Assembly (NCBI GenBank): GCA_016930515.1
Contig: JAFGGO010000138.1
Coordinates: 1 to 50,086, forward strand
Source: Promethearchaeota archaeon
GTDB taxonomy: Archaea > Asgardarchaeota > Lokiarchaeia > Sigyniarchaeales > SOKP01
Reading direction: 5' to 3'
Length of the DNA stretch: 50,086 bases
Position numbers and translations under genes: made by a program. Numbering within the stretch: the stretch's first letter is position 1; every line of letters begins with the position of its first letter. This document shows positions 46,629-49,896 of the stretch, in pieces. The notes below the pieces were generated by a model that was not told where the DNA came from, ran no database searches, and saw only the letters and a list, made by a program, of their open reading frames with translations.

Positions 46629-47492
46629 ATGATTGAGCTTGACTCGTTGGGTTATATTTCGGAGATATTTTCTTCCCTCCAAGGAGAGGGAGGAACTGTA
46701 CGAGGGAGTTGCTTTGGAAAACGACAGATTTTCGTGCGATTTTCGGGATGCAACTTGATACAGGGAGATGATGAATCAACAGGATGTTTTTGGTGCGATT
46801 CTCCCCGTGCTCAGCGTTTAGAGGCCGGAGCATTCACATACGAGACAATGCCTGGCACCCAACACCTTGCTAGCGCCGAAAGTCCAATTAGAATTTCAAA
46901 AATCGTTGATATAATCGAAAATTTGTCAACACCCGATTTGCATTCGATAAGCTTTACTGGCGGAGAACCTCTTTTTCAATTCGAAGTAGTTGACAAGCTA
47001 TCAAGGACTTTAAGGGAGAAAGAGTGGTCAACTCCTTTATATTTAGAAACAAATGGAACCATTCGTCTTACAGACGCACAATTATCAACGATAGCAGAGA
47101 GTTTCACCTATTGTTGCTGCGATATTAAGGACAGAAGTGCTAAAGTGACATCAAAAGAAGATGATTGGAAGAAACTCGTGAAATCTGAACTCAAATTTAT
47201 AAAGCAAATGGCAAATCGAGGAGTGGAAGTCTTTGCAAAACTAGTAGTAACAGCTGACTCTAAGATAGAGGACATCCTATGGATAGCAGAGCAACTCTCT
47301 AAGATCCGTCTTGGTGATGGTCAAGTAGTCGGGCTTGCGATTCAGCCCGCCGTATTAACAGAAAAATATGCGAAAAAATATTCCATTAGTTCGAGACAAT
47401 TGCATCAAATATTCGAATCTGTGGTAAGATTCGTGCCCATCGAAAGCCTGAGCTTATCGGTCCAAGCCCATAAAATGATCGGCTTGTTTTGA
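46629..47492 (+). CDS. queE: 7-carboxy-7-deazaguanine synthase (radical SAM)
   Basis: ISEIFSSLQGEG, FVRFSGCNL...CFWCDS, SFTGGEP, LETNG and QAHK motifs. Confidence 0.92.
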   Translation: MIELDSLGYISEIFSSLQGEGGTVRGSCFGKRQIFVRFSGCNLIQGDDESTGCFWCDSPRAQRLEAGAFTYETMPGTQHLASAESPIRISKIVDIIENLSTPDLHSISFTGGEPLFQFEVVDKLSRTLREKEWSTPLYLETNGTIRLTDAQLSTIAESFTYCCCDIKDRSAKVTSKEDDWKKLVKSELKFIKQMANRGVEVFAKLVVTADSKIEDILWIAEQLSKIRLGDGQVVGLAIQPAVLTEKYAKKYSISSRQLHQIFESVVRFVPIESLSLSVQAHKMIGLF

Positions 47493-47602
47493 CTTGATTT
47501 ATGAAATGTACCGTAAAATATAACAAATACAAACAATTTACATATCTTAGAGCTAAACTAATTTCTTATTGCTATCAGATTATATCAGATGTGAAATAAT
47601 AG

Positions 47603-48058
47603 ATGGGATACAAGGTTATCGTTCACGAATCCAAGGTGAAATTTTCGGCCAGTCACTTTTTAAAAGAACATTTCAAGTGCTCGAGATTGCACGGGCATAA
47701 CTATTACGTATCGGTCGAAGTGAGCGATGATTTGGACGAGAACTACTTCGTGGTCGATTTCATGGAACTCACGCAAAAACTAAAAGCTATAGTGGAACCA
47801 TTGGATCATTATGTGCTCATACCAACGGAAGCAAAAGAGATCACGGTTAATCGGACGGAATATTCCGTGGAAGTGTTGACTCCTTCAAAAAGATATGTGT
47901 TTCCACTTTCGGATGTATGTTTCTTGCCTTTACCTGCCACTACAAGCGAACTTTTGGCAAAATACATTCACGACCAGTTAAAAATAATTTATAAAAATAA
48001 GAAATTACTCGTAAAAGTCGGCGAAAGCAAGAGCTCCCTTGCTTCCTACGAGGAATGA
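47603..48058 (+). CDS. queD: 6-carboxytetrahydropterin synthase
   Basis: FSASH...CSRLHGHNY, VVDF, LDH and TTSELLA motifs. Confidence 0.93.
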   Translation: MGYKVIVHESKVKFSASHFLKEHFKCSRLHGHNYYVSVEVSDDLDENYFVVDFMELTQKLKAIVEPLDHYVLIPTEAKEITVNRTEYSVEVLTPSKRYVFPLSDVCFLPLPATTSELLAKYIHDQLKIIYKNKKLLVKVGESKSSLASYEE

Positions 48059-48185
48059 TATTATCATTTTTCATATTCTTCAATAGATGTAAGTAAATTT
48101 TATGTGTTATACTATGTTTTATCAATTAAGTCTATTAATTTCATAATGTTTGAGTGCTTTTCATGTTCTTTTAAAAACACGATAG

Positions 48186-48887
48186 GTGAAAATAACGCAT
48201 AGAAAAAACGAAGCGGCCTTGGTCGTGCTGTCTGGTGGACAAGATTCTACAACTTGCCTCGTGTGGGCGTTAAAAAAATTCCAATTAGTATCCGCAATAA
48301 CATTTAACTATAAGCAGAGACACGGCGTTGAAATCGATTGCGCTAAAAAAATTGTTGATATTATAAATTTAACAAGTGAAAAAAAAGTTAATGACCATCA
48401 AATCGTCGACATTTCTTTTTTTTCCGATTTAGTTCAATCTGCAATGATTCAAGAAACTGAAATTACCTACAACACCGAAACATCGCTTCCAACAACGTTC
48501 GTTCCTGGCAGAAATATAATATTCCTCACGATTGCCGCCGCAGTTGCGTATCAAAAAAGGATAAAGCACTTAATTGCAGGGGTTTGCCAGGAGGATTATT
48601 CGGGATATCCCGATTGTAGGGACGCAACGATTAAGAGCCTTCAGGCAACGCTAAAACTTGGTCTGGATTACGATATTATAATTCACACGCCTTTAATGTG
48701 GAAAAACAAGTCCGAAACGATTAAACTCATGCAAAAATTAGGAAGAATCGATCTTTATAAGTACACGCATACATGTTACGAGGGAAAACGACCAGCTTGC
48801 GGAAAGTGTTTTGCTTGCGAGCTTCGCTTGAGAGGATTCAAGGAAGCAGGACTTATTGACCCATTAGAATACGAAAATACGAGATAA
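48186..48887 (+). CDS. queC: 7-cyano-7-deazaguanine synthase
   Basis: LSGGQDSTT, FVPGRN, SGYPDCR and TCYEG...CGKCFAC.LR motifs. Confidence 0.96.
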   Translation: MKITHRKNEAALVVLSGGQDSTTCLVWALKKFQLVSAITFNYKQRHGVEIDCAKKIVDIINLTSEKKVNDHQIVDISFFSDLVQSAMIQETEITYNTETSLPTTFVPGRNIIFLTIAAAVAYQKRIKHLIAGVCQEDYSGYPDCRDATIKSLQATLKLGLDYDIIIHTPLMWKNKSETIKLMQKLGRIDLYKYTHTCYEGKRPACGKCFACELRLRGFKEAGLIDPLEYENTR

Positions 48888-49181
48888 CATTGATATTGTG
48901 TAAAAATAATTCTTAAGGGAATGAAAAATAATAAATCTGGTTATTTAAATAAATGTTCGGAAGATCGTCCTCTATAATTATAAGCCATCTATTTGATGTA
49001 AACGAGGAGACATGATCAAGCGAGACAAAAGAAAAACTATCTAATGATAGAAAATTTTAGGATAGAGATGCCACGAAAATGCATTTTACGCGCTTTTTGA
49101 GAATTATTTTTGTTTGTAGCACTAACACGAACAAAGTGTATATAACCAAGCCTTTTAAAAATTAAAAGGTTCAGTTAATAT

Positions 49182-49311
49182 AGACGGAAGGAGTCCCTAA
49201 AATTCGGATAAACATTGGATTTCGCCCTCTATTAAACTCAAACAGGAGTTTAATTTTCTCCTTACCTTTATAATATCGTTCGGATTGGGGGACCTTTCGG
49301 ATCTCTTTTTT
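49182..49311 (+). ncRNA. Candidate stand-alone ncRNA: about 125-nt rod with central bubble
   Basis: TTTTAAAA at 49153-49160; stems GGAAGG/CCTTTC, TCCCT/GGGGA, AATTCGGAT/GTTCGGATT and ATTAAACTC/GAGTTTAAT; 3' T-run. Confidence 0.55.
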
Positions 49312-49896
49312 CTATAGCTATATATTTTTTTTATTTTAAAGGAAATTGCAATTAATTGTAGATAGCAGTAATATTTAAGAATATTGGCCATATTAATTGA
49401 CGGAGATAAGAAAGGAAAATATACCTAAGATTTAGAAGTTTTTTAAAGATATGGATTGTCTTGCTTTAAATAAATAATTAGAAAATCTTAGTAAATTCAA
49501 GTAAATTTACCATAAAATCTTAAAAAACCTCAAAAAAGATAGGTCTGGATGAATGTTATTATTACTATTAGAAAAGAACTTTTTATTGAAATTAAGGATT
49601 TAAAAACACGCTAACATCTAGAATTAAGAACATGCAAATAAGATATACTATTAAATAATAATTTTAACATTCTGAAAAAAAGAACCATTCGATATTTTAA
49701 GAAATTCTCTAATTTATATATACCTAAAGCAATATTTTGCAGATTAAAATACTTCAATATTTAATTTGGCTTCAAGTCCAAGCAATAAATGTAGATGCTA
49801 AAATACTTTATGCAGAAATCTTCCAGATCCCTTTTTAAGGGTTTCTGTGGGATATTAACATACACTATTGATAATATCAAATTTTATAAAAAAAGA

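Follow-up and report, generated by a model that had tools for sequence, protein, structure and literature searches.

An uncatalogued, multi-copy RNA gene family of Loki-type Asgard archaea with an invariant loop that may pair with 16S rRNA

What kind of gene, if any, lies near the end of this Lokiarchaeial contig, and on what might its product act? The window, the whole stretch of 50,086 nucleotides analysed here (Promethearchaeota archaeon, GCA_016930515.1, contig JAFGGO010000138.1), had been predicted from its letters to hold a TATA-like box, a rod with paired ends, a central bubble, a cap and a T-run, together read as an undescribed archaeal RNA gene of 6S- or Y-RNA-like form. All of these parts are present at 49183-49311 on the + strand, with the box 5' of them. 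The features are as follows.

49153-49161, + strand: TATA-like box TTTTAAAAA, read from the sequence; presumed promoter
49183-49311, + strand: predicted transcript of about 125 nt, its start placed near G49183 from the distance to the TATA-like box
49182-49198, + strand: P1 5' strand, purine-rich, AGAC.GAAGG.AGTCCCT (MFE fold)
49201-49209, + strand: P2 5' strand AATTCGGAT (fold and covariation)
49210-49230, + strand: internal-loop 5' strand, AAAC followed by ATTGGATTTCGCCCTCT, opposite 49255-49277
49214-49230, + strand: invariant single-stranded 17-mer ATTGGATTTCGCCCTCT (near-identity among copies)
49231-49239 with 49246-49254, + strand: P3 capping hairpin, perfect 9-bp stem with a 6-nt loop (MFE fold)
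49255-49277, + strand: internal-loop 3' strand, pyrimidine-rich, beginning TTTCTCCTTACC
49278-49286, + strand: P2 3' strand GTTCGGATT (fold and covariation)
49288-49304, + strand: P1 3' strand GGGGACCTTTC.G.TCT (MFE fold and flank pairing)
49306-49311, + strand: oligo-T tract, T6, read from the sequence

As originally described, the ends pair over 24 bp, end to end along P1 (49182-49198 with 49288-49304) and P2 (49201-49209 with 49278-49286), with several G-U pairs possible on the + strand only, and the cap is a perfect 9-bp stem. The centre of the TATA-like box lies about 26-30 nt 5' of the first paired bases (49182-49187). We placed the 3' end of the predicted transcript inside the T-run; oligo-T tracts serve as archaeal terminators, and T6 is probably one of them. 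The expectation of no credible ORF was borne out, the sole frame at the locus being one of 64 aa on the minus strand, and ARAGORN detected no tRNA or tmRNA there. A scan for sigma-70 promoters and hairpin terminators was not informative, the host being an archaeon.

The lone sequence gives no significant fold: its MFE is -33.7 kcal/mol (z -1.15), and 28 of 200 shuffles do equally well. It is the relatives, through their pairing and covariation, that show the fold to exceed chance. The consensus obtained with MAFFT and RNAalifold from untrimmed copies was poor, and eight trimmed copies therefore served to seed a covariance model. Across relatives, 94.5% of cells were paired, and 17 of the 18 modelled pairs showed double (compensatory) changes; none of 500 shuffles matched the observed values, and slid controls were only 47-53% paired. 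In P2, compensatory double changes occur at all nine pairs (49 distinct copies). Across the family P3 is 97.9% paired; eight of its nine pairs show a double change in one copy or more, and its loop varies from 3 to 6 nt. In every rod-type copy, the GGAAGG-like 5' end of P1 pairs with a CCUUYC 3' end, and cognate flanks paired better than non-cognate ones (-13.8 vs -11.3 kcal/mol). The same plan of P1, P2, loop and P3 was recovered when the copies were folded one by one.

The homologue search proposed with the original prediction thus returned a family with covariation: the model detected 1-7 copies per genome in 92 of 102 genomes of the host's family and none in 18 sister-family genomes, and BLAST gave matches in 36 of 36 genomes of the host's family. 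The host genome has two copies, which share the loop and differ in their stems by compensatory changes. Elsewhere in the family some copies form tandem pairs, and the distal 3' strand is variable. A box reading TTTTTAAAG, TTTTTATA or TTTTAAA precedes the purine-rich P1 strand by about 25-30 nt (52 copies), its spacing to the first stem is fixed across the family, and T-rich tails follow P1. No copy overlaps an ORF of at least 80 aa, and the orientation of the neighbours is mixed. In one relative (G015), four contig ends mark where two near-identical copies break the assembly, and both copies sit within a larger duplicated flank. The RNA lies near queC in only one close relative, on the other side, and an RNase J-like gene stands beside one paralogue, at a single locus.

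The Rfam search, also proposed with the original prediction, is consistent with an uncatalogued RNA. Rfam 15 gave no match for the window at gathering score, none for the region 48880-49800 at E up to 10 and, at E up to 0.1, none for the loci of eight relatives, and we found no description of the RNA family in the literature searched. The locus is thus very probably a stand-alone gene with its own TATA box and oligo-T end, which would produce a structured RNA of about 125 nt. Its multi-copy family is uncatalogued and, within the genomes searched, confined to one Loki-type Asgard family. In this core, an undescribed archaeal ncRNA gene, the original prediction held up; the transcript itself is predicted, and gene status is argued from gene-like anatomy, conservation and covariation.

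The loop is the constant part of the family. The 17-mer AUUGGAUUUCGCCCUCU is identical in nearly all copies from 13 genera, and the first eight positions 3' of P3 are almost all pyrimidine, with the consensus UCUCUCCC (49 copies); UCUCUCCC and CCCUCU flank P3. The 17-mer and the pyrimidine tract look like a base-pairing or protein-recognition surface. Several motif-level readings were set aside on reading the sequence: a K-turn; a bulge-helix-bulge at the P1/P2 junction; a T-loop in P2, which covaries freely; a CsrA-type GGA sponge, there being one GGA only; and an ENE-like clamp of pyrimidines, or a triple helix, on AGAGGG. For the last of these, the mirror symmetry of the two loop strands holds at five of six positions in the consensus and fails in the studied copy.

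In ten copies from relatives, the 17-mer is interrupted exactly between C10 and G11 by differing inserts of 21-32 nt; neither the studied copy nor its host genome has such an insert. Each insert is laid out as 1 nt, a covarying helix, a GAUU-like stretch and then AA, the junction and G, and when the inserts were removed in silico the copies refolded to the family plan. Bulge-helix-bulge introns occur in archaeal tRNA, rRNA and a few other RNAs and are cut by the tRNA-splicing endonuclease. The inserts resemble them in their fixed site and in a geometry fit for that endonuclease, namely a helix and a 3-nt bulge, followed by a possible 4-bp helix and by another 3-nt stretch with the other junction. 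They differ in having no exon-exon helix and in that two of the four central pairs are G-U. The inserts are thus bulge-helix-bulge-like in a relaxed, tRNA-type form, and their splicing is putative; as they lie between two blocks complementary to rRNA, they might also be tolerated unspliced.

These blocks are the two halves of the 17-mer: GGAUUUC and GCCCUCU are perfectly complementary to GAAAUCC and AGAGGGC in helices 22/23 of 16S rRNA. The complementarity surfaced as a pattern match inside a 16S gene and was noticed post hoc. The stretch was assembled in 6 of 135 family genomes, and all six sequences read UAGAGGGC-GGGAGAGG-...-GGUGAAAUCC, giving a 7+7 perfect match in five and a 10+7 match in the sixth (G062); 16S was not assembled in the host genome, and two closed relatives also returned none. 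Adjacent 7+7 blocks in 16S plus 23S were matched by 992 of 200,000 composition-matched shuffles of the 17-mer, a chance of about 0.005 that is suggestive only. In a cofold scan the site was the best window of the available family 16S (-15 to -19 kcal/mol, vs a mean of -2), and none of 1,200 random genome windows fell below -11.3 kcal/mol. Among 41 family genomes, a full complement to the 17-mer, with G-U allowed, was found only in the gene itself, and host-genome matches with 15-16 pairs look like chance. The pyrimidine tract is complementary to 16S GGGAGAGG and also to SD-like GGAG(A/G) motifs. The sister family, which has no copy of the RNA, reads AGAGGGU...GAAAUGCGAU at this site, and no version of the 17-mer adapted to its own 16S was found there.

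Other observations weaken the match. In five of the six family 16S sequences a mismatch stands opposite the third base of the 17-mer, though AUU is invariant, and rRNA pairing therefore accounts for only part of the 17-mer. When the loop module was taken by itself, windows elsewhere in rRNA were nearly as good (-22.1 vs -23.4), and for the genus-8 copy the 16S site ranked second.

Taken as a whole, a stand-alone RNA gene acting through pairing of its loop with 16S is the best explanation of the sequence comparisons, and one that we hold tentatively. The rod of P1 and P2 keeps the large internal loop open, with P3 as its cap, and the loop displays the 17-mer with the pyrimidine tract facing it. 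The RNA would most likely act in trans, by base pairing of the exposed loop strands. GCCCUCU would pair with AGAGGGC in helix 22, and GGAUUUC, which reads AUUGGAUUUC in one genus, with the GAAAUCC(AAU) of the helix 23 690-loop hairpin, while the pyrimidine tract could pair with the adjoining GGGAGAGG. The central domain of 16S (pre-)rRNA is accordingly named as the preferred target, as a possibility somewhat short of a probability. Since helix 22 is paired in the mature small subunit, the contact would be transient and occur during small-subunit assembly. A fuller version, which we regard as doubtful in all its parts together, is a box-less snoRNA-like RNA that binds nascent 16S helices 22/23 by its 17-mer, as an assembly chaperone or as the guide of an ElaC-like nuclease, and whose genes have gained tRNA-type introns between the recognition blocks.

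A partial precedent is snR30/U17, a non-modifying H/ACA snoRNA needed for 18S rRNA processing (Fayet-Lebaron et al. 2009, PMC2664660). Shared with it would be conserved hairpin elements complementary to two short, separated stretches of small-subunit rRNA, and a pairing that must be transient if it occurs, the target being partly helical in the mature subunit. By comparison, the Asgard RNA has no H/ACA boxes, K-turn or Rfam match, carries both rRNA-complementary blocks on a single loop strand, and would target the universal helices 22/23 rather than a eukaryote-specific segment. That the resemblance is functional is speculation by analogy.

The RNA also recalls archaeal H/ACA sRNAs in its lower stem, two-stranded pocket, upper hairpin and rRNA-complementary loop strands. 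Its pocket strands are, however, 21 and about 23 nt long as against 5-9 nt, and the order of its rRNA blocks brackets no target uridine; the strand order of AGAGGGC and GGGAGAGG agrees poorly with a simple H/ACA-type pocket. Neither H/ACA nor C/D core boxes were seen, and the snoRNA and sRNA models of Rfam gave no match. An ANA/ACA box is absent 3' of the lower stem, where GGGGGACC follows P2 (49286) and GGATCTC-T6 follows P1, and family tails hold no conserved ACA. P3, a perfect 9-bp helix with a variable loop, has no K-turn or K-loop.

Could the loop strands act on mRNA instead? The C/U-rich strands (CCCUCU, UCUCUCC, CUCCUUA) would then pair with purine-rich ribosome-binding regions and block or modulate translation initiation. 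They are exposed pyrimidine tracts complementary to SD motifs, and in the host genome the SD-like GGAGG, GAGGT, AGGAG, AGAGG and GGAGA are enriched 4-9-fold 5' of start codons. The genus-8 copy reads GAUCUCCUCCUUA, which we take to be close to the usual 16S 3' end, and the multiple copies, tandem pairs and variable distal 3' strand are traits of sibling sRNAs. Against this, duplexes of the invariant strand with 2,194 start regions gave 70 sites at or below -14 kcal/mol vs 32-72 for shuffled strands, that is, no enrichment; 41 genomes held no conserved complement; and the start of the mRNA for the adjacent hydrolase showed pairing at background level. The seeds of mRNA-targeting sRNAs are usually 6-8 nt long, and seeds so short leave the invariance of the 17-mer, including AUUGGAUUU, over 13 genera unexplained.

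Such regulators are known from Firmicutes, where RsaE/RoxS (RF01820) and LhrC1-5 act on translation initiation with C/U-rich loops. Like the Asgard RNA they are small and stand-alone, sometimes exist as sibling copies and carry invariant C/U-rich strands for SD-like tracts. The Asgard RNA differs in showing no sequence or model similarity to them, in placing its motifs in the large internal loop of a rod rather than in hairpin loops, in an invariant element of 17 nt that is not purely C/U, in its archaeal host and in that no target enrichment was found for it. On balance, we consider regulation of mRNA by the loop strands unlikely.

Total invariance of the 17-mer would also fit a protein or RNP contact. 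Under such a reading the 17-mer is a protein recognition site, and the partner could be an ElaC/RNase Z-like hydrolase of the metallo-beta-lactamase fold, whose gene adjoins one copy of the RNA in most genera and in about 60 genomes. The copy lies downstream of the gene (about 270 aa), on its strand and at a distance of 0.1-0.7 kb, in about 48 genomes; in about 12 it is convergent with the gene, and in seven it is 2-5 kb away, with at least eight genera represented overall. The hydrolase has a match to PF12706 and a weak one to RNase Z, whose 42 bits fall far short of the cut-off. Its structural model, of moderate confidence only (pLDDT 71.6), comes closest to the ElaC homologue 1zkp, YhfI, PhnP and RNase Z. 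A canonical RNase Z is encoded elsewhere in the genome, and the neighbouring hydrolase is therefore a paralogue with another job. It would process the RNA, or the RNA would guide or regulate it; for instance, the 7-nt GCCCUCU and P3 could combine with a target into an acceptor/T-arm-like helix.

The linkage is nevertheless incomplete. The RNA and the hydrolase gene are unlinked in the host genome, where the latter (contig 183) is directly followed by another gene, as well as in genus 8 and genus 12. Sister families carry the hydrolase without the RNA, whether sought by the model or by search downstream of the gene, and the adjacency may be inherited synteny. We rate a protein partner of this kind as quite improbable.

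A locus of this form need not be an RNA gene. It might be a MITE (a mobile inverted repeat), the alternative named with the original prediction, or it might serve the downstream gene in cis, as a 5' leader or riboswitch. The termini are indeed an inverted repeat (P1), the copies are dispersed, one relative has its near-identical pair at four contig ends, and some copies are followed, after 150-350 nt, by a gene on the same strand. Against a MITE, copy number is low (1-7 per genome), the stems differ within a genome by compensatory changes while the loop is fixed, which is the opposite of a MITE, and the conserved promoter box lies outside the inverted repeat. As for a leader, the gene downstream varies in strand, distance (90-1250 nt) and family, at many loci being on the other strand or beyond 500 nt, and no Rfam riboswitch matches. 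Both are very improbable.

Weakest of all, and scarcely credible, is the likeness drawn in the original prediction to 6S RNA, whose bubble traps RNA polymerase, or to a Ro60-bound Y RNA, which is one of general shape only (paired ends, a central bubble with pyrimidine-rich strands, about 125 nt): 6S and Y RNA models had no match in the window, even locally at E up to 10, 6S had none anywhere in the host genome, and no TROVE/Ro60 gene (PF05731) was found in the 94%-complete host genome, in which positive controls were recovered. The RNA shares with 6S (RF00013) the rod, closed ends and large central bubble, but is about 125 rather than about 180 nt long; its bubble is invariant in sequence (the 17-mer) rather than conserved in shape, and is no sequence-free mimic of an open promoter; and to our knowledge archaea have no sigma-70 holoenzyme, whose promoter 6S mimics. 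With Y and bacterial Y-like RNAs, partners of Ro60/Rsr, it shares 5' and 3' ends in a long stem and a pyrimidine-rich internal loop, but there is no tRNA-like module in the Asgard case.

Small RNAs have hardly been explored in Asgard archaea, and neither Rfam 15 nor the literature searched contains this family. With its invariant 17-mer, covariation, promoter and presence in about 90% of more than 100 genomes, it is well defined and a ready experimental target in Loki-type cultures or metatranscriptomes. Its fixed-site, tRNA-type inserts suggest that non-tRNA small RNA genes can gain such putative introns. Should the RNA regulate mRNA, it would be among the first conserved families of trans-acting sRNAs in Asgard archaea. 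Its sequence suggests that it may act on the ribosome. A box-less RNA binding 16S, if true, would be a third kind of archaeal rRNA-pairing small RNA beside the C/D and H/ACA guides. If the 16S pairing is functional, the family would represent a non-modifying RNA in small-subunit assembly in the archaea nearest to eukaryotes, and such a role, if true, would bear on the origin of snoRNA-assisted ribosome biogenesis.

The RNA gene at 49153-49311 on the plus strand was re-read and folded, and the promoter-like box, rod, loop, P3 cap and T-run described in the original prediction were all recovered.

49153-49161 (+): TATA-like box TTTTAAAAA, read in the sequence
49182-49198 with 49288-49304 (+): P1 helix, predicted fold
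49201-49209 with 49278-49286 (+): P2 helix, predicted fold
49210-49230 (+): 5' strand of the internal loop, AAAC followed by ATTGGATTTCGCCCTCT, enclosed by the rod
49231-49254 (+): P3, perfect 9-bp hairpin capping the loop, predicted fold
49255-49277 (+): 3' strand of the internal loop, starting TTTCTCCTTACCTTT, enclosed by the rod
49306-49311 (+): T6 run, read in the sequence

P1 and P2 together form a rod of 24 bp with several G-U pairs, which begins ~26-30 nt 3' of the box. The minus strand folded much more poorly, and the sole ORF was an unsupported 64-aa frame on that strand, in agreement with the earlier statement that no credible ORF is present. The single-sequence fold was not significant (z -1.15; 28 of 200 shuffles equally good); the case for an RNA rests on comparison with relatives. 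A second TATA-like sequence, TATATAA, is located at 49139-49145 (+), 14 nt 5' of the main box, and might serve as an alternative promoter, from which the transcript would have a 15-nt leader. The entire stretch, TGTATATAAC..TTTT(T)AAA, also precedes the orthologue in another genome of the genus (L010).

Relatives of the RNA were detected by BLAST in all 36 genomes searched from the same family of Loki-type Asgard archaea. The 5' loop strand ATTGGATTTCGCCCTCT (hereafter, the 17-mer) was identical in 31 copies from 13 genera, with variable P1, P2 and P3 loop, and the P1-P2-loop-P3 plan was recovered from every copy folded singly. One genus has a 5' hairpin and a terminator hairpin instead of P1, and retains P2, the 17-mer, P3 and the pyrimidine tract. 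A covariance model spanning P2, the loop and P3 matched 56 of 61 and 92 of 102 family genomes, including all 13 genera, with 1-7 copies each, though near-identical copies collapse in the assembly graph and counts from draft genomes can therefore be too high or too low. For example, four contigs of one relative (G015 contigs 16, 42, 64 and 76; L108-L111) end within one 127-nt stretch of the RNA gene, and these matches represent two near-identical copies breaking the assembly. The model matched none of 18 genomes from five sister families of the same class.

Among 49 distinct copies, 94.5% of cells were paired and 17 of 18 pairs changed on both sides; fitting of the alignment to the model biases this towards the structure, and the independent single-sequence folds concur. 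None of 500 shuffles attained any of five covariation measures, and sliding the partner by one column reduced pairing to 47-53%. P1 varies less in sequence (GGAAGG... with ...CCUUYC); even so, pairing is stronger between cognate than between non-cognate flanks, and single compensatory switches were seen. The suggested homologue search in Asgard genomes and covariation test both came out in favour of the RNA. The second copy of the same genome (contig 36:11039-11122 (-), that is L002:1470-1590 (-)) is identical to the window copy in 17-mer and cap and differs from it in its stems, which compensate (UCACUCGGC/GUCGGGUGA); a 111-aa zinc-ribbon membrane-protein frame is found ~150 nt downstream of it.

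Among the copies examined, a TTTTTAAAG, TTTTTATA or TTTTAAA box was found ~25-30 nt 5' of the purine-rich 5' end of P1, and a T-rich tail 3' of P1. No ORF of at least 80 aa overlapped the RNA in any copy. The next gene is on either strand, 90-1250 nt away and of varied families, which argues against a leader. A mobile repeat (MITE), raised earlier as a possible refutation, was rejected given the low copy number and the paralogues, whose stems change compensatorily around a fixed loop, the opposite of what a MITE shows. An H/ACA RNA was also rejected, as neither an ACA box nor a K-turn is present. Neither the window nor the loci of eight relatives matched Rfam 15, as the prediction of an undescribed RNA implied, and nothing relevant on the motif or on Asgard small RNAs was found in the papers searched. 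The analogy to 6S and Y RNAs did not hold beyond shape, because no 6S model matched across the genome, no TROVE/Ro60 gene was found in it, and the bubble keeps an invariant sequence in addition to its shape. With the conserved box, T-rich tail and covarying stems, the predicted archaeal ncRNA gene is very probably a real one, belonging to an undescribed, lineage-restricted family of structured RNAs.

In this genome (G+C 35%), the RNA element follows a queE-queD-queC row (46629-48887 (+); 7-cyano-7-deazaguanine synthesis, named by reading the translations), 296 nt after the stop codon of its final gene, queC, and is located ~480-590 nt upstream of a small membrane-protein frame. The adjacency to queC is not conserved, since in a close relative (L078) the RNA gene flanks the other end of queC and is read from the opposite strand. 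Between queC and the RNA gene of the window there is a tiny frame (49004-49044 (+); ATG at 49012, 10 codons) preceded at the right distance by GAGGAG, which could be chance.

The pattern ATTGGATTTC-N10-40-GCCCTCT revealed 14 more copies of the family (genera 1, 2, 3 and 11), in each of which an insert of 21-32 nt splits the 17-mer exactly between C10 and G11; the window's copy has no insert.

L112:148-264 (+), also L119-L124 and L126-L129: insert-bearing copies, 29-32-nt hairpin inserts, bulge-helix-bulge (BHB)-like layout

Ten distinct inserts were examined; they have one unpaired A and then a helix of differing sequence (AGGCG/CGCCU, GGAGAUAUGG/CCAUAUCUUC, CGAA/UUCG, GAGGU/GCUUC), followed by GAUU, GGUU or AAUU, and end in AA or AC before G11. 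GAUU is able to form four pairs, two of them G-U, with exon G5-U8. In our reading, UC|A and AA|G would be 3-nt stretches on opposite strands, 4 bp apart, resembling a relaxed bulge-helix-bulge geometry. With the insert deleted in silico, all ten copies refolded to the family plan; two of the ten are the hydrolase-linked copy (see below). If the inserts are spliced, an intact 17-mer is important to the RNA; if they are not, this position can accommodate an additional hairpin. As sequences, the split 17-mers point to putative tRNA-type introns in a small-RNA gene.

The intron pattern unexpectedly gave a minus-strand match within an incomplete 16S gene. This 16S has the sequence 5'-AGAGGGC-(33 nt)-GAAAUCCAAU-3', the exact complement of GCCCUCU and AUUGGAUUUC. 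All six family genomes with this stretch assembled have UAGAGGGC-GGGAGAGG...GGUGAAAUCC in 16S. The three bases after GGUGAAAUCC differ (AAU, UAU in four genomes, or UGU), so the firm complementarity is limited to 7+7 and to the match of the pyrimidine consensus UCUCUCCC with the adjacent GGGAGAGG; the invariant AUU is opposite a mismatch in five of the six sequences. Based on the E. coli 16S alignment, we take these stretches to be helix 22 and the 690-loop hairpin of helix 23. Three sister-family 16S genes have AGAGGGU...GAAAUGCGAU, and no 16S-adapted counterpart of the RNA was found in the sister family. In the 16S genes compared (L097, L133, L130-L135), the 690-loop hairpin of the family reads GGGGUGAAAUCC(A/U)(A/G)U, a form resembling that of most archaea; the sister family with large closed genomes has GCGGUGAAAUGCGAU, closer in appearance to bacterial 16S.

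When the 17-mer was shuffled with its composition kept, 992 of 200,000 versions had a 7+7 match in adjacent blocks somewhere in 16S+23S. In a cofold scan, the site outscored every other window of the family 16S available (-15 to -19 kcal/mol, mean -2), and none of 1,200 random genome windows fell below -11.3; with the isolated loop module, other rRNA windows scored close, and the site ranked second for the genus-8 copy. The 16S lead is suggestive at the sequence level, and 16S (pre-)rRNA is a plausible, if tentative, candidate for the partner.

A partner in mRNA start regions is less likely. Apart from the gene itself, 41 family genomes contained no full complement to the 17-mer, even with G-U allowed, and shuffled strands formed duplexes with start regions that were as good as the real ones. 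Upstream of start codons SD-like motifs are enriched, and the loop strands resemble anti-SD sequences, making a role as an mRNA regulator possible.

A protein or RNP role tied to an ElaC/RNase Z-like hydrolase is unlikely, and the remaining probability falls to other readings. The hydrolase (~270 aa) matches PF12706 and only weakly the RNase Z model (42 bits vs a cut-off of 293), and its predicted fold (pLDDT 71.6) most resembles that of the ElaC homologue 1zkp, followed by YhfI, PhnP and RNase Z. Combined coordinates from the covariance-model hits and the hydrolase search placed an RNA copy within ~1 kb downstream of the gene in ~60 of the 84 family genomes possessing it (co-directional in ~48, convergent in ~12), and 2-5 kb off in seven more. 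Most genera do show this link, but it is absent from this genome, where neither RNA copy is near the hydrolase gene (contig 183:8013-8810 (-), that is L100:1501-2298 (-)); the next gene, directly after it, is an iron-type alcohol dehydrogenase-like one, no RNA is present there, and a canonical RNase Z is encoded elsewhere. Sister families that lack the RNA have the hydrolase gene too, and the link may be inherited synteny. A second neighbour of nuclease type was seen at one locus only (L014:1835-3096 (+)), where a genus-2 paralogue has an RNase J-family beta-CASP-like gene ~320 nt downstream. The RNA most likely acts by base pairing through its displayed loop.
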